The notes below the pieces were generated by a model. It was given only the letters and a program-made list of their open reading frames with translations, was not told the origin of the DNA and did not search any database. The position numbers and the translations under genes were made by a program. From Methanobacteriota archaeon (lineage in GTDB: Archaea; JAADCQ01; Methanopyri; Methanopyrales; Methanopyraceae), in contig JAMOPY010000035.1 in NCBI GenBank assembly GCA_027064305.1, forward strand, positions 1 through 18,277: a DNA stretch of 18,277 bases. Reading direction: 5' to 3'. Positions 6,432-14,247 of this stretch are shown here, in pieces (position 1 is the first letter of the stretch; each line of letters starts with the position of its first letter).

Positions 6432-6687
6432 GACGGCCCGGGCCGGAGAACTCCTCCACACGCCGCTCGAGCAGCTCCTCCATCACCTTTTTAGCCTCTT
6501 TTAGCGCCTCCCTGGTGCCCCTAAACGCCAGTACGGTGGTTTTCATCCCACCCCGCTCCAGCTCCCGCTGCACGACTTTCACGTCGCACCGCCGCTCAAC
6601 CTCAGCGATGATATCAGCCGGGACCCCTAACGGGATGATCATATCATACTTCCTCGCCTTCTCCTCACCTCCTCCTTGCTCTCCCAC
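6400..6687 (-). CDS. Small hypothetical protein (about 80-95 aa)
   Basis: [14 protein letters not shown]...[20 protein letters not shown] reads as a folded alpha/beta protein; start uncertain (GTG6687 or ATG6642); convergent overlap with the TIGR00300 gene. Confidence 0.65.
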
Positions 6688-6715
6688 GCGGGCCCCCGCA
6701 GGGGGTGCGAGCGGG

Positions 6716-7681
6716 TTGGCGGAAAAAGGTAGCGGTGGCGGCGAGAAGAAGGAGGAGCGGGAGCGCGAGGACCGGATCACGGTGAAATCACGGCACTACG
6801 AGATGCCCTTCTCGCGCGGGGTCCTCGCCCGCTCCCTCACCGCCATCGGCATCGAGCCGCACAAAGCCTACGAGATCGCCCTAGAGATCAAGCGGGAGCT
6901 GCAGCGGGAGGGCGTCCGGGAGATCAGCACGGACGAGCTGGCCGACATCATCCGCCAGAAGCTCGAGGAGATCGACGAGTCCCTCGCGGAGCGATACGAG
7001 CTCTGGCGCCGGATCAAGAAGCGGGAGGAGCCCATCATCGTCCTGATCGGCGGCGCGTCCGGCGTGGGCACGTCCACGATCGCCGCCGAGGTCGGCCACC
7101 GACTCGGCATCACGAACGTGATCGGCACGGACGCCATCCGAGAGGTCATGCGCCGAGTGCTGGCCGAGGAGCTGTACCCGACCCTCTACGAGTCCTCCTA
7201 CACCGCCTGGAAGCGCCTCCGCTACAAGCCCGCCGAGGACCCCGTGATCACCGGCTTCCTCGACCACTCCGAGCCCGTCGTGGTCGGCATCGAGGGCGTC
7301 GTCAACCGCTCGATCAACGAGGGCATCCACGTGATCATCGAGGGCGTGCACATCGTCCCGCGCCTCATCAAGAAGGAGATCCTCAACTACCCCAACGTGT
7401 TCGCCTTCATGCTCGCCGTGGAGGACGAGGAGGCGCACAAGTGGCGCTTCTACGCGCGCTCCCGGGACACCAAGCTATCACGCCCGGCCGAGCGGTACCT
7501 GAAGTACTTCGAGGAGATCCGCAAGATCCACGACTTCCTCGTCGAGGACGCCGAGGACCACGACATCCCGGTGATCAACAACGAGCACATCGACGAGACC
7601 GTGGAGGAGATCGTGAGCTACATATCGTCCAAGTTGCTGAAGGGAGAGAAGGAGCTGGCGAAAAGCTCGTCCTGGTGGTGA
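6716..7681 (+). CDS. pgk2: 2-phosphoglycerate kinase (cDPG pathway) with N-terminal ATP-cone
   Basis: MPFSRGVLARSL ATP-cone; P-loop IGGASGVGTST; TDAIREVMR, LYESSY, IEGVH; TTG6716 with SD gggggtg. Confidence 0.93.
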   Translation: MAEKGSGGGEKKEEREREDRITVKSRHYEMPFSRGVLARSLTAIGIEPHKAYEIALEIKRELQREGVREISTDELADIIRQKLEEIDESLAERYELWRRIKKREEPIIVLIGGASGVGTSTIAAEVGHRLGITNVIGTDAIREVMRRVLAEELYPTLYESSYTAWKRLRYKPAEDPVITGFLDHSEPVVVGIEGVVNRSINEGIHVIIEGVHIVPRLIKKEILNYPNVFAFMLAVEDEEAHKWRFYARSRDTKLSRPAERYLKYFEEIRKIHDFLVEDAEDHDIPVINNEHIDETVEEIVSYISSKLLKGEKELAKSSSWW

Positions 7682-7685
7682 AAGC

Positions 7686-8120
7686 ATGCGCCTGACCGAG
7701 AAGCTCCAACGGTGCAAGGCCGAGGATCTCATGACGGAGGACCCGATCACCGCGTCCCCCAACGACGGTGTCATCGAGGCGTTCGAGATCATGATCAAGA
7801 ACGACGTGGGCGCCCTCCCGGTCACCGACAAGGAGGACCGCCTCCTCGGCCTCGTAACCCGAACCGACCTCGGGAGAGCCCTGCTGGAGGACCGGTACGA
7901 GCCTGGAACCACCGTGGAGGAGGTCATGGAGACGGACGTGGTGGTCGCGCGCCCGGACGACGACCTGATCACGGTCATCAAGAAGATGTGCTCCGCGCCC
8001 GAGGGCATCTACAACCAGCTGCCCGTCGTGGACGACGAACGACGCCTATTGGGCATCATCACGGACGGGGACCTCATCCGGTGGCTCGCCGACCGCGTGA
8101 AGAGGTTACGATCAGGGTGA
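7686..8120 (+). CDS. Tandem CBS-domain protein
   Basis: AEDLMT...ALPVTD...LLGLVTRTDL and VEEVM...LPVVDD...LLGIITDGDL; 4 nt after pgk2. Confidence 0.93.
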   Translation: MRLTEKLQRCKAEDLMTEDPITASPNDGVIEAFEIMIKNDVGALPVTDKEDRLLGLVTRTDLGRALLEDRYEPGTTVEEVMETDVVVARPDDDLITVIKKMCSAPEGIYNQLPVVDDERRLLGIITDGDLIRWLADRVKRLRSG

Positions 8121-8329
8121 GTGAGGAACCCCCGGAGGAGCTCCTGCGGCTGCTTCTCGACCACGGCGTCCGGGTCACCCGAGACGGGGACTCCGTGCTG
8201 ATTCAAGGCACCCGGGAGGACCTGCTGGAGGCGCTCCTTCACGTCCCACCGAAGCTGTCCCTATCCAGCCCGGAGATCGTGAAAAAGCTGTGGAGGGAAC
8301 TGGGCGCGGACCGACCGCGCCTGCGCTAG
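8117..8329 (+). CDS. Small hypothetical protein, 70 aa
   Basis: GTGA start/stop overlap with the CBS gene; MSEEPPEELLRLLLDHGVRVTRDGDSVLIQGTREDLLEALL; 3' part of ORF 7712..8329. Confidence 0.6.
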   Translation: MSEEPPEELLRLLLDHGVRVTRDGDSVLIQGTREDLLEALLHVPPKLSLSSPEIVKKLWRELGADRPRLR

Positions 8330-9216
8330 AACACCGTGTAGTGGCCCTGCACGACCGACTGATCCACCAGGAAGACGCGCTGCCGACCCCCGGAGGCGGA
8401 CATCCAGAACCACAGGCTCACCTCTCCCTGCCTCGCGTGCTCCGGCAGCACCATCGCGGGCACCGTTCGCCCGGAGAAGTTCACCGTCCGCGTCCCCACC
8501 TTCTCCTCCCCGGGACCCAGGAGATCCACCCGAATCCGTCCCAACTGCACGGTGAGCTGCTCCAGCACCAGGCACCCACGGGCCCCCGTCTTCCTCAACG
8601 CCCGCTCGATCCGACGCTTCACCTCCACGTGCTTACCGTCACTCACGTTGCACAGAACCCTACCGACCACGGAGTTGTACCGTACCTTCACGCTCGGACC
8701 GTCCATGACCCGGTTACCCAGCTCCCGGCGGACCGCCTCCTCCACCTTCCGCTTGTCCGGCTTCCCGTCGTACGAGGCCTGGAACAGGAACACGGATCCC
8801 TTTACCACCACGCTCCGCTCCGCCATCGACTTGCCCTTGAGGACTTTCTCCACGTCCTTCCTGGCCTGGCTCGGGTCCACCGTGCTCGGTACCAGCGCGT
8901 CCACCACGTACACCTCGTACCCCTTGATCTTGGTCTTCTGCACGGAGACCCGCTCGACGCTCTCCACCCCCTCCACCGCCTTCCGCAGCTCCTTCCCGGA
9001 GACACCCCGCTTCGGCACGACCAGCGCCCGAACGATCGACACCTGGTAGTCGCGCACGATCTTCGCCTTCACGACGGCCCGCGCCGCCACCACCCTTCCG
9101 CCGGTCTGTCCCGAGAGCGTGAACGTGGGGATGGCCGAGAGCACCATCATTCCGGCCAGGAACAGGATGCCCGCCGTCACGATCGTGCGTCGGTGCCGCC
9201 GTATCCAATCGAACAC
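8326..9216 (-). CDS. Hypothetical membrane-anchored or exported protein, 296 aa
   Basis: Basic N-terminus plus hydrophobic helix TIVTAGILFLAGMMVLSAI; SD gggggagtga; K/R/V-rich remainder. Confidence 0.7.
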   Translation of the reverse strand: MFDWIRRHRRTIVTAGILFLAGMMVLSAIPTFTLSGQTGGRVVAARAVVKAKIVRDYQVSIVRALVVPKRGVSGKELRKAVEGVESVERVSVQKTKIKGYEVYVVDALVPSTVDPSQARKDVEKVLKGKSMAERSVVVKGSVFLFQASYDGKPDKRKVEEAVRRELGNRVMDGPSVKVRYNSVVGRVLCNVSDGKHVEVKRRIERALRKTGARGCLVLEQLTVQLGRIRVDLLGPGEEKVGTRTVNFSGRTVPAMVLPEHARQGEVSLWFWMSASGGRQRVFLVDQSVVQGHYTVF

Positions 9217-9219
9217 CGC

Positions 9220-9768
9220 TCACTCCCCCGCGCGCTCCATCAGGAGCTCCAGGTAGGACTCGCGCACCCGCTCTCCCCTCACGCCCAGCCTCTCGGCCAG
9301 CCGCAGGAGGCTCTCCTCCGCCCGCTCCACCTCGGAGCGATCGCCCACCGAGCACTCCAACTCCAGGAACGTCCCCAACCCGCTCACCTCGTCCAGCGCC
9401 ACCGTCACGTCCCGACCCTCAAACCTCACCCGGTACACCTCCCGACGCTTCTTAACCTTCACCCGCTCCAGCGGCCGGAACCCCAGGCGCCTCAGGATCC
9501 GATCCATCCGCTCCCCGTCCTCCACCTCAACCTCCACCTCCTCCCGGGACTTCTCCCGACCCACCCGGGGCCCCTTGTACGTCAACACGACCCTACCGTC
9601 CGTGCGGCGCAGCCTCAGCGCCTCGTCCGTCTCCCCGAAGTCCCGGCACGGGTGCTGGTAGTACACGTCCACCTGCTCCAGCGTCCCCTCACGCTCCCCA
9701 AGCTCCCGCAGCCGCTCCCTCACCTCCTCCGGGTTCTCAACGGCGATCTTCACCTCCACCTCGAACAC
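9220..9768 (-). CDS. cyaB: CYTH / class IV adenylate cyclase (CyaB-like triphosphate tunnel metalloenzyme)
   Basis: EVEVK, QVDVYY, ALRLR, LTYKGP, SREEVE, KKRREVY, LDEVSGLGTFLELE, SYLELL. Confidence 0.93.
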   Translation of the reverse strand: MFEVEVKIAVENPEEVRERLRELGEREGTLEQVDVYYQHPCRDFGETDEALRLRRTDGRVVLTYKGPRVGREKSREEVEVEVEDGERMDRILRRLGFRPLERVKVKKRREVYRVRFEGRDVTVALDEVSGLGTFLELECSVGDRSEVERAEESLLRLAERLGVRGERVRESYLELLMERAGE

Positions 9769-10939
9769 GCTCCCTCCCCCGCAGCAGCTCCCCGAGGAAT
9801 CCCGGGTTGACCGTCAGGTACCCCAGGACCGCCCCCAGCGCCGCCGGCACGGCGCAGTCCATGCCGAACAGCTCCATCACGAGCACCGCGGCCGAGACCG
9901 GGGCGTCGAACGCCACCGCCAGGAACGCGGACATGGAGGCGGCCACGGCGGCCGGCGCCGGCAACCCCACCAGCGCCCGCACGGCGGACCCGAAGAAGAT
10001 CGAGGCGCACACGACCGGCGAGACGAAGCCCGCGGGCACCCCGCTCCCCAGCGTGAGCGACGTTGCCGCCACCTTACCCAGGAACGCCAGCCCCGAGCAC
10101 CACGGGTCCATCCGACCCACCGCCGCCCGGGACGCCCAGTCCAGCCCCAGCCCGACCGCCTGCGGCACCCACGCTCCCAGGGCCGCGACCGCGACCCCGG
10201 CGAGCAGCGCCCGGACCTCCGCCCGCTGAACCCGGTGAAACCACCGGTACGCGACCTGCACCGAGCGCACCAGACCGTACGCCGCCACGGCCGCCGCCAG
10301 GCCCACCACCGTCAGCCCCGGCAGGTCCCACCAGGAGTACGCGTACCCGGCGTGGGCCGTCAGCAGGTAACGCTTCCCCAGGACCAGGTAGTACACCGTG
10401 TACCCGGAAACGCTGGCGATGATGGCCGGAGGCAGGCACGGATACCCCAACCTCCCACCGAGCGTCTCCAGCGTGAAGAGGGCCGCGGAAACCGGCGCGC
10501 ACAGGACCCCGGACACCCCACCGGACGCGGTCGCGACGATCACCCACGACCTGGGCAGTCCCTTCACGCCGAGCCGCTCGGCGCACCAACGGCCGATGGA
10601 CACGCATGACTGCACGCAGGGACCCACCTGGCCCCCGCTCCCGCCCGACCCGATCACGGTCCCCGCCACCAGGAGCTTGAGCACGCCGGCCACCGGATCC
10701 CTGGCGCGCCCCTGCCGGGCCTTGTCCAGCCCCGTCCCCGGAAGCTCCGGGTGCAGCGAGCTCACGGCCCCGGCCAGCGCCATCACCGCGGGCGTCACCC
10801 ACACGGACCCGCCGGAGAGTCGACCCACGGTCAGGATGGTCCAGGTGATGGTGGCGGCGCACAGCCCGCCGACGGCGCCCAGGGCCAGCGACAGCAGCGT
10901 CCACCGCACCGTCAACGTTAGATCGTCGCGCAGGACCAC
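9737..10939 (-). CDS. CLC-family anion transport protein (divergent)
   Basis: Multiple TM helices; GTGLD, GGSGGQVGP, APVSAALFTLE, LGSGVPAGFVSP, APVSAAVLVMEL match the CLC motif positions. Confidence 0.85.
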   Translation of the reverse strand: MVLRDDLTLTVRWTLLSLALGAVGGLCAATITWTILTVGRLSGGSVWVTPAVMALAGAVSSLHPELPGTGLDKARQGRARDPVAGVLKLLVAGTVIGSGGSGGQVGPCVQSCVSIGRWCAERLGVKGLPRSWVIVATASGGVSGVLCAPVSAALFTLETLGGRLGYPCLPPAIIASVSGYTVYYLVLGKRYLLTAHAGYAYSWWDLPGLTVVGLAAAVAAYGLVRSVQVAYRWFHRVQRAEVRALLAGVAVAALGAWVPQAVGLGLDWASRAAVGRMDPWCSGLAFLGKVAATSLTLGSGVPAGFVSPVVCASIFFGSAVRALVGLPAPAAVAASMSAFLAVAFDAPVSAAVLVMELFGMDCAVPAALGAVLGYLTVNPGFLGELLRGRERVRGGGEDRR

Positions 10940-10955
10940 CCGCCCCGGGGAGGTG

Positions 10956-11285
10956 ATGTTGGGCTGGGAGCTGCGGGTCGAGCGGGACCGCCGGGAGACC
11001 GTGTGCGGCCGGGTCCTGGAGCTGTACTCGGACGAGCGCCTCTCCCTGGCCGAGGTCGAGGTGGACGGGGAGGGCGAGGAGCACTACCACGAGCGGACCA
11101 CGGAAGTTTATTACGTGCTGGAGGGAACCGGCCGCGTCCACCTGAACGGGCGGCCCGTGGACGTCCGCCCCGGAGACGTGATCGTGGTGAGACCCGGGGT
11201 AAGGCACAAGGTGGAGGGCCGGATGAGGCTGCTCGTCGCGTGCTCACCCCCCTTCGACCCCGAGGACGTGCACGCGGAGGGATGA
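10956..11285 (+). CDS. Cupin domain protein, 109 aa
   Basis: HYHERTTEVYYVLEGTG and PGDVIVVRPGVRH metal-binding motifs; SD ggggaggtg; start ATG10956 or TTG10959. Confidence 0.9.
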   Translation: MLGWELRVERDRRETVCGRVLELYSDERLSLAEVEVDGEGEEHYHERTTEVYYVLEGTGRVHLNGRPVDVRPGDVIVVRPGVRHKVEGRMRLLVACSPPFDPEDVHAEG

Positions 11286-11352
11286 TGAGCTAAGCCTACT
11301 CCGACCCGAGCGGGAGTGATGGAACGGGTGAGCTGCCTGACCTCCCGCGTGC
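11270..11352 (+). ncRNA. Box C/D methylation-guide sRNA
   Basis: C ATGATGA 11282-88, 12-nt guide, D' CCGA 11301-04, hairpin linker, C' GTGATGG 11316-22, guide, D CTGA 11337-40; terminal stem gcacgcggagg/cctcccgcgtgc. Confidence 0.88.
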
Positions 11353-11618
11353 GCGCCACCCTCCGGCTGCGGGTGCCCGACCCGGTGCTCCTCGCCCTGA
11401 TTCCGGACGCGGACCCCTGGTGCCGCGTGCGAGACCGCCGCATCCACCTGCGAGGCGACGGCTTCGGGCCCCTGAAGCACGCCGTCGACGACGTGCTTCG
11501 GTGCGTGAAAGCGGGCCTGTCGACCCTGAGGGTGGCCGAGAATGCAGCCGCTGACGCGGAGGAACAAGGACGAGCACCCGGCCGTGACCGACCCGGACAC
11601 GACGATCATCCTCGGTGA
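11349..11618 (+). CDS. Pcc1-like protein (KEOPS complex subunit family)
   Basis: ATLRLRV...LLALIPD...IHLRGDGFGPLKHAVDDVLRCVKAG resembles the Pcc1 pattern; GTG11349, at the 3' end of the sRNA, preferred over 11316/11319. Confidence 0.55.
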   Translation: MRATLRLRVPDPVLLALIPDADPWCRVRDRRIHLRGDGFGPLKHAVDDVLRCVKAGLSTLRVAENAAADAEEQGRAPGRDRPGHDDHPR

Positions 11619-12249
11619 CGTGCGGGCGAGCGAGGACTGCGTGATCGGCGAGCGCGTCCGGCTGGGCCCCGACGCGAGGCTGCGCGGCGCCCTGATCTCG
11701 GGCGAGTCCGTGATCTACAACGCGGAGCTCGAGGGGTGCGCGGTGGGCTCTCGAACCACCGTCACGGGCCGGGTCTCGGAGGGCGCCACCGTCCACCACG
11801 GCTCCGTGCTGGGGCAGCTGAAGGTCAGCGGGGACCTCGAGCCCCCCACCGTCGGCCGGGGCGCCCTGGTCGGACCCGGCGTCTCCCTCCTACCCGGCGC
11901 CGAGGTGGGCGAGGAGGCGGTGCTGCTCCCGAACAGCGTGGTGACCGAGCGGGTGCCCCGGCGCGGGGTGGTGGGGGGCAACCCTGCGATGCCCCGCGGC
12001 GTGGTCGTGGACGCGGAGCGGGTGGAGGTCGAGTTCGACGGCTCGGAGTTTCAGGTCGAGGGACGCCGGGGGCGCGCCTTCAACCTCAGGCTCGCCGACG
12101 GCGGGCTGGAGATCGAGGAGGGACGCCCCGAGGAGTTCGGGGTGATCGCCGAGGAGCGGCCGCGGATCGTCCGACTGGGGCACGCGATCGAGCTCCCGCG
12201 CCGACCCTTCACCTTCCCCCTCCACGTGCTCCACCTGAGGATCAAGTAG
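11542..12249 (+). CDS. Hexapeptide-repeat (left-handed beta-helix) acyltransferase-like protein
   Basis: PTVGRGALVGPGVSLLPGAEVGEEAVLLPNSVVTERVPRRGVVGGNPA, a typical LbH acetyltransferase C-terminus. Confidence 0.8.
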   Translation: MQPLTRRNKDEHPAVTDPDTTIILGDVRASEDCVIGERVRLGPDARLRGALISGESVIYNAELEGCAVGSRTTVTGRVSEGATVHHGSVLGQLKVSGDLEPPTVGRGALVGPGVSLLPGAEVGEEAVLLPNSVVTERVPRRGVVGGNPAMPRGVVVDAERVEVEFDGSEFQVEGRRGRAFNLRLADGGLEIEEGRPEEFGVIAEERPRIVRLGHAIELPRRPFTFPLHVLHLRIK

Positions 12250-12260
12250 GGGGACCGCCG

Positions 12261-12863
12261 GTGCCCGTCCGGGACTCGGTCCTCATCGACACGAAGGTGG
12301 AGGAAGGGCTGGTGCTCGGGAGCGTGCTGGAGGGGTGCGAGGTCCGACGGGCGGCGGTGGTCGGCACCGTGGCCCGCGGGGAGCGGTTCCGGGAGACCGT
12401 GGTGGTGGGCGGCCGCGAGGTCGACGGTAGGGTGATCACCGTGCCCGTTCGGGCCGGGGAGTGGGGGGCCGCGTCCGGGGAGGAGGAGGCGCGCGTGCCT
12501 GGGGACGACGGTGACGTCCTCGCGATCGTGGCGGACGCGGGCGCGATGGGCCTGCTTCGGGACCTGCTGAGGCTGGAACCGCGCCGGGTCGGCCTCCACG
12601 CGCTGTTCACGTTCTCCGGCCCGCTGCCGGGCCGGCTCCGGCGGAGGATCGTGGGCAACCTGGACGTGTTCCGGGAGTGCTGCCCCTGCGCCTACCTGCG
12701 CCTCGGCGACACCGTGCTCGCCTTCCGGGGAGGGCGGCAGGTCTTCGGCGAGCCCGAGGAGGTGCGGTACAGGGACGTGCTGGTCGTGCGGGAGGGCCGA
12801 CCGGCGCTGTCCGCCTGGCGACCGGCGGCCCGCAGCGTGATCTCCGAGCTCGGGGCCGGGTGA
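12261..12863 (+). CDS. Hypothetical protein with a short beta-helix-like N-terminus, 200 aa
   Basis: SD aggggga before GTG12261; VRDSVLIDTKVEEGLVLGSVLEGCEVRRAAVVG repeat-like segment; CCPC motif. Confidence 0.6.
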   Translation: MPVRDSVLIDTKVEEGLVLGSVLEGCEVRRAAVVGTVARGERFRETVVVGGREVDGRVITVPVRAGEWGAASGEEEARVPGDDGDVLAIVADAGAMGLLRDLLRLEPRRVGLHALFTFSGPLPGRLRRRIVGNLDVFRECCPCAYLRLGDTVLAFRGGRQVFGEPEEVRYRDVLVVREGRPALSAWRPAARSVISELGAG

Positions 12864-12869
12864 CCCCGC

Positions 12870-13775
12870 GTGGCCGACCCGCGCGAGCTGCCGGAGCTCT
12901 TCTGCCGGGCCGTCGCGATCGAGGCGCTCTCGGGCCCGAAGCCCGGGCTCGTGGACCCCGTCTCCCCCAGCCCCCATCCGGACATGGGGCCCCGGGAGTT
13001 CTGCCTCTGCCTGCCCGCGCTGAGGAGGTGCCTGCGTGAGGCGCTGGAGCTCGGGCTGAGTCGGGAACCGGTGGAGGAGCTCGTGCGCCGCCTGCCCGCC
13101 TGGAACGTGGACGTGCTCACCGCCTCCGCCGGCCCGAACCCCGTGCGCGGGGTCCTGTTCCTGGGGGCCGTGCACTGTTACTCGGCCGGGTGGGAGCGGG
13201 ACCCCATGCCCGTCGATCGGATCCGGGAGGTGGGCCGGTTCTGCGCGGAGCGCCTGTGGGATCGGACGGAAACGAAGTGCGGTCGAAGGCGGGTTCGGGA
13301 GGGGCTGGCCGGGATCTTCGGGGAGGCGGCCTCCGGGCTCGCGACGGCCAGGACGGTGTCGCTCCCCACCCTGGTCTCGGTGCTGAGAAGGGGCGGCTCG
13401 CTCGAGGAGGCCGTGGTCCAGTCGGTCCTGGCCTGCATGGCCGTACTGGAGGACGCGGGGCTCCCACCGGGGGATCGAAGGTGGGTCCGGCGCCGGGCGC
13501 GCCGGGTGCTGCGGCTGGGCGGGGTGATGACCCCCAGGGGCCGGCGGGAGCTCTGGTCGTTCGTGCGGGAGTGCCTCGAACGCCGCGTCAGCCCGGGCGC
13601 GTCCGGCGACGTGACGGTGGTCGGGCTCGTGATGCTGTTCCTCCGGTGGGGCCGGGACCTTGCTTCCCCGTATCTTGATCCTCCGGGACGGTGGCGTGGG
13701 GGAGCAGTGGGGGCGGACGGTGCGGCTCCTGGTGCGCGGGGACGGGACGAGGGTGGTGGCCGCCCGGGGCGATAG
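12870..13775 (+). CDS. citG: CitG/MdcB-family triphosphoribosyl-dephospho-CoA synthase
   Basis: EALSGPKPGLVDP...HPDM, NPVRGVLFL, GIFGEAASG, SPGASGDV motifs. Confidence 0.85.
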   Translation: MADPRELPELFCRAVAIEALSGPKPGLVDPVSPSPHPDMGPREFCLCLPALRRCLREALELGLSREPVEELVRRLPAWNVDVLTASAGPNPVRGVLFLGAVHCYSAGWERDPMPVDRIREVGRFCAERLWDRTETKCGRRRVREGLAGIFGEAASGLATARTVSLPTLVSVLRRGGSLEEAVVQSVLACMAVLEDAGLPPGDRRWVRRRARRVLRLGGVMTPRGRRELWSFVRECLERRVSPGASGDVTVVGLVMLFLRWGRDLASPYLDPPGRWRGGAVGADGAAPGARGRDEGGGRPGR

Positions 13776-14247
13776 GAAGTTTTTTAGTCCGGGAGAGGTG
13801 AGAGTTGAAAGAAGGTTAACGCCCTGGGACGCCTACCGGGAGATCTGCCCGAGGCTCAGGCTCGACGCGCTGGAGCCGCCGGAGGACGCGGGTCACCCGG
13901 TCGACCCCGAGGTGGGGTACCGGGTGCTGGAGCTCCTGTCCGTGCTGTGGAGGTCCGGGATCCGCGACCTGGGCGTCGTCGGGACGGTGGGCTGCGCCGC
14001 CCCGCTTCACGACCTGACGGTGGGGAACCCGGTCGGGTGGACGAGCCTGCGGGTGGCGAACCCCGGGTCGGACCTCGACTTAATAATCCGGGAGAGGAAA
14101 ACCCTACGAGCCCTCCTGCGCCTGGGGTTCCGGGTCGTCAGACGCCGGGGCGATGGCGCGGTGCTGTCCCCGGACCGCGTCACGGGCTTTCGAACGCCCA
14201 GACTTGACGTGAGGTGGGGGTGCGACGTTGGCGGACGATCTGGATAG
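13660..14247 (+). CDS. Pol-beta-fold nucleotidyltransferase, MdcG-like (phosphoribosyl-dephospho-CoA transferase candidate)
   Basis: LGVVGTVG...SDLDLII...RLDV catalytic pattern; N-terminal VRG...R...LTP similar to MdcG; adjacent to citG. Start uncertain. Confidence 0.6.

Follow-up and report, generated by a model that had tools for sequence, protein, structure and literature searches.

The window analyzed here, a stretch of 18,277 nucleotides from an uncultured Methanopyrus-genus genome, carries a complete double-guide box C/D sRNA at 11267-11355 of the forward strand, between a cupin-domain gene and a conserved small open reading frame (ORF). The cupin gene occupies 10953..11285 (+) and starts at GTG 10953 or ATG 10956; the ORF as listed runs 10398..11285, and its last 111 amino acids match Pfam Cupin_2 at 1.3e-16. 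The start of a divergent CLC-channel gene lies only 13-16 nt from the start of the cupin gene. On the other side of the sRNA, the small ORF at 11349..11618 (+) would encode 89 aa, or 99 aa from an alternative ATG at 11319, and its protein frame is conserved in all six genomes of the genus. Neither Pfam, searched with either start version, nor NCBIfam returned a match for it, and Pfam likewise had no match for the three ORFs on the minus strand that lie across the sRNA.

The first-pass annotation had proposed a C-D'-C'-D architecture closed by a terminal stem, and every motif was found where it had been placed, with all boxes present in that order and a stem that folds. The 5' arm of the stem in the minimum free energy structure (11267-11280, +) is made of the last codons of the cupin gene. 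Box C, AUGAUGA (11282-11288, +), does double as the cupin stop, as had been claimed: TGA 11283-85 lies within it and ends ORF 10398..11285. It is followed by the 12-nt D' guide GCUAAGCCUACU (11289-11300, +), whose N+5 nucleotide is C11296, by box D', CCGA, a degenerate form of CUGA (11301-11304, +), and by an 11-nt D'-C' linker (11305-11315, +) whose sequence varies in the alignment. Box C', GUGAUGG (11316-11322, +), holds GTG 11316 and ATG 11319, both in the frame of the downstream ORF. The 14-nt D guide AACGGGUGAGCUGC (11323-11336, +), with G11332 as its N+5 nucleotide, leads into box D, CUGA (11337-11340, +), and the 3' arm of the stem in the fold (11341-11355, +) includes GTG 11349, at which the downstream ORF likely starts.

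The fold of 11265-11357 reaches -43.8 kcal/mol (z = -3.9), and none of 200 shuffled sequences was as stable. The arrangement by which C/D sRNAs are recognized is present: close to the 5' end lies box C (RUGAUGA) and close to the 3' end box D (CUGA), the two joined by a terminal stem of 14 bp, and between them are D' and C' boxes set off by spacers of about 12 nt. Both internal boxes are degenerate, CCGA and GUGAUGG being off consensus, and the D spacer measures 14 nt rather than the usual 12, a length common to all six copies in the genus. The helix itself had been recognized correctly in the earlier reading, but its extent had not: the arm given as GCACGCGG begins only at 11270, whereas the folded 5' arm begins at 11267, and the helix runs three pairs farther outward on each side.

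A 751-nt query recovered the locus from all six genomes of the genus, at identities of 97%, 83% and 67-68%, and a sequence model of the sRNA found one match per genome (76.6-86 bits). The gene context is alike throughout: the cupin gene precedes the sRNA and the conserved small ORF follows it. Over the stretch that runs from box C through box D, the alignment has 46 invariant columns of 60; the upstream flank has 31 of 83 and the downstream flank 20 of 77. Box C is invariant over the six copies at 6 of its 7 columns, the G004 copy reading AUGAGGA. The GA of box D' is present in every copy, as is the D-guide core ACGGGUGAGCUGCC; the D'-guide core CUAAGCCUAC is identical in five, and in G004 an A>G substitution makes a G.U pair out of an A-U pair, the target in that genome's own 23S being unchanged. 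Box D is CUGA in five copies and CCGA in G004. Directly after box D, a 2-nt indel occurs in G001 and G002, and the reading frame across the sRNA differs among genomes. Because this frame varies while the guides stay fixed, the constraint falls on the RNA and not on a protein. Across the genus, the guides aimed at the GTPase-associated centre have stayed fixed while the surrounding genes have drifted to about 55-65% identity. Such fixity supports a real, selected function, either of these two modifications or of the double-guide clamp, in organisms that live near 100 C.

The borders with the flanking genes can be followed in the same alignment. The cupin stop lies within box C in five of the six genomes and within box C' in G004. 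There (locus L017) box C, AUGAGGA, lacks a TGA, and the cupin frame passes through box C, the D' guide and box D' before it ends at the TGA of box C', so that the 5' half of the sRNA is nominally coding in that genome. Downstream, the GTG of the small ORF lies 8-10 nt past box D (17 nt in G004) in five of six genomes. In G003, the in-frame starts that keep the conserved N-terminal region are found only inside the sRNA, and the next one is a GTG at +104.

The window's own assembly (50 contigs, 89% complete) contains a 16S rRNA gene, and a 23S rRNA was not found in it; with the cognate molecule absent, pairing was computed on the 23S rRNA of the four same-genus relatives that have one (G001, G002, G004 and G005). 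In all four, the D' guide pairs with GGUAGGCUUAG through 10 Watson-Crick pairs and one G.U pair, and the D guide pairs with CAGCUCACCCGU through 12 Watson-Crick pairs. The D target lies 38 nt downstream of the D' target, at positions 1286 and 1248, respectively, in the 23S of the closest relative. Both complements that the first-pass annotation had quoted are thus present in every 23S available from the genus. The 100-nt target region is the same in the four genomes save for three positions, all of them outside the targets.

Aligned to E. coli 23S, the N+5 nucleotides are G1061 and C1099 when counted from the RefSeq-annotated 23S start of one E. coli strain, next to the predicted sites near G1062 and C1100. 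Conventional numbering gives G1062 and C1100 on our assumption that A1067 is the loop A of GGCUUAGAAG. We take the target region to be H43/H44, the uL11/thiostrepton site. The E. coli ruler printed over this same block (1060-1150) in the supplement of Dennis et al. fits the G1062/C1100 numbering. Both N+5 positions are Watson-Crick paired, and each duplex spans its N+5 position. Section 16 of PMC4644070 asks for at least 9 consecutive Watson-Crick pairs and for two targets no more than 100 nt apart; on the relatives' 23S, each guide of the present sRNA forms at least 9 such pairs with N+5 covered, and the two targets fall within 100 nt.

The public sequencing runs listed as containing this DNA are DNA runs without exception. 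Contigs assembled from four DNA runs over the target region of a relative's 23S give cover that is partial, fragmentary and from mixed organisms. A 559-nt contig of run X1, not assignable to the window's own genome, covers the D-guide target with two differences, both outside the target. In the mixed-organism contigs of the four runs, no variant at 10% or more is listed within the D' target; an A>G at locus place 3303, within the D target, is seen at minority depth in all four, again in contigs not assignable to the window's own genome.

How far such pairing exceeds coincidence differs between the two guides. Shuffled guides attained the observed Watson-Crick run in 35 of 5000 trials for D' and in 3 of 5000 for D, and k-mers drawn from the genome did so in 165 and 22 of 5000, respectively. 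Taken by itself, the D' match would be weak, since 165 of 5000 12-mers drawn from the genome match over 10 nt. A pair of matches on one rRNA strand, at a distance of 38 nt, is not weak, and the argument rests on the combination together with its conservation. Elsewhere in the window's own genome, no other guide complement of at least 9 nt was found for the D' target; the D-guide complement has numerous chance matches across this GC-rich genome.

Based on guides, context and targets, the sRNA is very probably, for this uncultured genome of the genus Methanopyrus, the orthologue of C/D box sRNA 63 (MKAsR63) as published from M. kandleri. Compared by eye, the G002 copy is letter for letter the 72-nt "C/D box sRNA 63" of Table S1 in Su et al. 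2013 (PMC3695527), and that entry records 16,400 RNA-seq reads, a "+" for permuted (circular) reads and a PLEXY target at 23S-1288. The same sequence appears as MKAsR63 in Dennis et al. 2015 (PMC4644070), where it is assigned the targets 23S U1343 and G1304; in the alignment there, K63 stands at two places in the block GUAGGCUUAGAAGCAGCC...AACAGCUCACCCGUC, which faces E. coli 1060-1110. In the seven-species table of that paper, 1304 and 1343 occur once each, 1342 is absent, and no other species is predicted at these sites. Shared guides, shared flanking genes and a single copy per genome, the features by which we delimited the sR63 orthologue group, were found in all six genomes.

The published predictions for the D-guide site differ from each other by one nucleotide, as given in Table S1 of PMC3695527 and in Additional file 1 of PMC4644070. 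With sR15 as a ruler, for which PLEXY 1263/1285 corresponds to C1317/C1339 of the published alignment, PLEXY 1288 falls on the N+5 C. The site is thus a C by N+5 counting from CUGA and by the 2013 PLEXY entry, and the 2015 curated table gives the next nucleotide, a U. In both papers, as tabulated, methylation at the sR63 sites is a prediction (PMC3695527, PMC4644070). The first-pass annotation had presented the element as a hidden RNA of a class known in Methanopyrus. The class is indeed represented there, by MKAsR63 itself, and the guide RNA is real; "hidden" does not hold, the orthologue having already been published with RNA-seq reads and the same two 23S targets.

The cupin stop within box C bears on how the RNA may be made. 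As summarized in the review PMC7994747 from Tripp et al. 2017, only about 20% of archaeal C/D genes have a TATA-like motif of their own, 25% contain the stop codon belonging to the upstream gene, almost half of those inside box C, and 7% overlap a downstream start. The same review describes a stop codon in box C and maturation from longer transcripts as common, with maturation set by the box motifs and not by the flanks. The first-pass annotation had remarked that this RNA would have to be cut from a longer transcript, and by analogy such cutting fits archaeal C/D biogenesis as described there. The plus strand lacks any T5 run from 6488 to 13780, which, with the gap of 13-16 nt between the divergent starts, is consistent with co-transcription of the cupin gene and the sRNA; nor was an AT-rich stretch seen by eye upstream of the sRNA. 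The overlap with the cupin stop and the probable processing from a polycistronic transcript are typical of the class.

The proteins needed for a C/D RNP are encoded in the same genome (G000), with matches to fibrillarin (4.4e-104), Nop (Nop5; 1.8e-75) and L7Ae (8.8e-30). The fibrillarin and Nop5 genes are adjacent (G000:C40:5685-7254, minus strand), about 4 kb upstream of the 16S gene (C40:11209-12725). We propose that the sRNA is probably transcribed within a cupin-sRNA-small ORF transcript. From the known mechanism of the family, L7Ae would then bind the C/D k-turn as well as the C'/D' motif, with assembly of Nop5 and fibrillarin on them. Trimming of the exposed flanks would leave an RNA of roughly 70 nt, by analogy about 11277-11348, a fraction of which is perhaps circularized. 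For archaeal double-guide C/D sRNAs, discrete transcripts of about 55-97 nt are expected. Its guides pair, as computed on the relatives' 23S, with two segments that flank the hairpins of the GTPase-associated centre (E. coli about 1058-1068 and 1098-1109). Fibrillarin would be expected to 2'-O-methylate whichever nucleotide faces the guide's fifth position upstream of a D-type box: a G at one site (E. coli G1062) and, at the other, a C (C1100; the alternative in print is U1101). A simultaneous hold on both flanks may also aid the folding of this region of the nascent 23S.

It is also possible, if unlikely, that this last effect is the main one, and that the RNA is real but acts chiefly as a folding chaperone for the GTPase-associated region, with one guide or neither yielding methylation. 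The 38-nt distance between the targets would suit such a role, which has been proposed for double guides; in PMC4644070, 16 of 262 double-guide sRNAs have non-productive guides. The 14-nt D spacer and the one-nucleotide offset between the published D-site predictions also lean this way. Against this, N+5 is Watson-Crick paired in both guides, and both guides are invariant along their whole length. A chaperone role is, moreover, not exclusive of a methylation role.

The terminal stem raises a separate question about this guide RNA. In G000 and G005, the duplex of the 16-nt flanks of the boxes has an energy of -27.8 kcal/mol at 37 C and, by extrapolation, of -8.7 at 85 C and -4.1 at 100 C; the corresponding values for the four remaining genomes of the genus are -4.8 to -13.3 at 37 C and, on the same extrapolation to high temperature, roughly -0.4 to -2.4 at 100 C. 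G000 and G005 have a terminal helix of 14 bp, the other four one of 3-6 bp, and in the window (11267-11280/11341-11355) the helix overlaps the final cupin codons and the GTG at 11349 that probably starts the next ORF. Su et al. describe terminal complementarity in M. kandleri sRNAs as absent or too short, and propose circularization as the stabilizer (PMC3695527). An unlikely model would be that G000 and G005 have gained their GC-rich 14-bp helix, built from the cupin end and the leader and GTG 11349 of the next ORF, in place of circularization to keep the k-turn closed, and that the helix would make sRNP assembly and downstream translation mutually exclusive. If so, one transcript would give rise to either a guide RNA or a protein. 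Lineage-specific growth of a terminal stem is a small point, and may interest specialists.

The same helix could instead be read as primarily an mRNA element that sits between the cupin gene and the following ORF and affects stability, pausing or translational coupling, with the box motifs incidental. It does cover the final cupin codons and the GTG at which the following ORF likely starts, and it is predicted to hold at 100 C (-4.1 kcal/mol). The long helix is found, however, in just two of the six genus genomes (G000 and G005), whereas the boxes and guides are found in all six, and the M. kandleri orthologue, which lacks the long helix, is an abundant small RNA by its Table S1 read count. 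We consider this reading highly improbable.

Extremely improbable, in our judgment, is that the segment is simply coding sequence and gives no separate RNA, either as an extension at the N terminus of the downstream ORF, starting from ATG 11319, or as a C-terminal extension of the cupin such as that in G004. In its favor, ATG 11319 and GTG 11316 share the frame of the downstream ORF, the starts that keep the conserved N-terminal region of this ORF in G003 sit inside the sRNA, and the cupin frame of G004 extends to the TGA in box C'. The frame across the sRNA is not constant, however, given the 2-nt indel in G001 and G002; the D-guide nucleotides are invariant in all six genomes, would-be synonymous positions included; and the ORF is without a Pfam match in either version. 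An sRNA is also compatible with overlap of an ORF end, as the review's summary indicates (PMC7994747).

A genome-wide scan addresses coincidence directly. A crude four-box scanner returned 41 candidates in the 1.21-Mb genome, an undercount given that it takes a narrow set of box C variants only, and none in the same genome reversed; the genus is reported to have about 126 C/D sRNAs. Matches to rRNA through at least 9 nt of Watson-Crick pairing over N+5 are made by one or more guides in 32 of the 41 and by both in 11. The scanner's sole candidate within the window is the sRNA at 11267-11355. That the element is a random grouping of short motifs in a genome of 70% G+C has a practically negligible probability: GC-rich k-mers do frequently match rRNA over 10 nt (the 165 of 5000 draws above), but the reversed genome gives no candidate with the box architecture, the two guides match adjacent 23S sites, and the element is kept in six of six genomes and has an orthologue sequenced as RNA. 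The RNA reads of the orthologue, the alignment, the reversed-genome scan and the conservation across the genus effectively refute it. What lies at the locus is a real double-guide box C/D sRNA, and the first reading of it was essentially right.

The comparison with known systems begins with Rfam, which at gathering thresholds has no match anywhere in the window. With E-value thresholds, sub-threshold matches to C/D families only were obtained, the best being RF01309, sR60, at 27.3 bits against a gathering threshold of 50 (E = 1.2e-4 on 331 nt). We rejected membership in sR60, since the score lies below 50 bits and the window's linker and C' box are aligned against the sR60 D guide. This Pyrococcus/Thermococcus C/D sRNA has in common with the window sRNA its box C and the hexamer AGCCUA of the D' guide, but true copies score 79.9-86.5 bits and carry other guides; the window's sub-threshold match is due to the shared box sequence.

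Outside the genus, relatives were sought in a collection in which the GTDB phylum is represented by these six genomes only. The sequence model gave weak matches alone, at most 20.1 bits, in 5 of 115 non-genus archaeal genomes. Four of these five loci were viewed, and three proved to be sR60 (79.9-86.5 bits, unrelated guides) and one a different sRNA, at locus L032. The 15-nt pattern GGGTGAGCTGNCTGA, searched in 401 genomes, matched in 16 genomes, against 2 matches for the reversed control. Eleven of its matches lie outside the genus, of which 8 were viewed (all but those in G199, G339 and G282); those in G125, G185, G128, G073, G209, G289 and G109 were set aside as chance, with no C/D architecture. 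The pattern occurs in 3 of 5 genomes of genus g29, and its match in one of them, G056, is a C/D sRNA. Locus L032 (G056:C1:1280494-1280614) carries this sRNA at 1280524-1280584 (+), in a Thermococcales-type genus (g29, family f7).

The L032 sRNA is likewise a double-guide RNA. Its D guide GUGGGUGAGCUGG holds the window's 10-nt core GGGUGAGCUG, followed by N-CUGA, and its N+5 falls on the same C of G056's own 23S (1242 in AACAGCUCACCCGUC); the GCCUAC of its D' guide is also common to the window sRNA. It differs in that the D' guide GGCCUACCUCG is shifted by 3-4 nt relative to the window's, with 9-nt matches at two sites in its own 23S, one at 986 and one in the GTPase centre, the latter 3 nt upstream of the Methanopyrus D' site. 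Its C'/D' linker is 3 nt long, both of its D boxes are canonical CUGA, its genomic context is another, and it scores 20.1 bits with the Methanopyrus model. Its score stays under the threshold of every Rfam family, with 41.5 bits for snoPyro_CD, whose threshold is 45 bits. To judge from these sequences, the L032 sRNA could be a deep homologue of the window sRNA or a product of convergence. An sRNA on the same C, whether by rare deep conservation or by convergence, may interest specialists.

Within M. kandleri, three other sRNAs address the same 23S stretch in the published alignment: sR15 at C1317/C1339, sR34 at U1332/C1291 and sR89 at C1344 (alignment positions). The D' guide of sR15 overlaps the target of the sR63 D guide. 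As listed, all three differ from sR63 in being separate genes with other guides and other methylated nucleotides.

The closest comparison is with MKAsR63 itself. It has the same D-guide core ACGGGUGAGCUGCC, the same D'-guide core CUAAGCCUAC and, as published, the same two 23S targets; the cupin stop likewise lies in its box C, with the conserved small ORF next, and box order and spacer lengths match. Core identity with the window sRNA is 50 of 59 positions. The two differ in box C' (GUGAGGA in MKAsR63, GUGAUGG in the window) and in linker sequence, and the flanks are merely 56-65% identical. The stem of MKAsR63 is about 3-4 bp (-8.7 kcal/mol at 37 C), against the window's 14 bp (-27.8 kcal/mol at 37 C), and MKAsR63 has been sequenced as RNA, whereas the window sRNA is known from DNA alone. 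The main lesson is that a reading of raw sequence recovered a correct, fully specified guide RNA together with its rRNA targets; the biological gain is one more species copy of a published sRNA. As such a copy, the window sRNA is not new, and it is ordinary for its class. What is new here is the unusually long 14-bp terminal stem of this lineage and, beyond the genus, a Thermococcales-type sRNA aimed at the same C.
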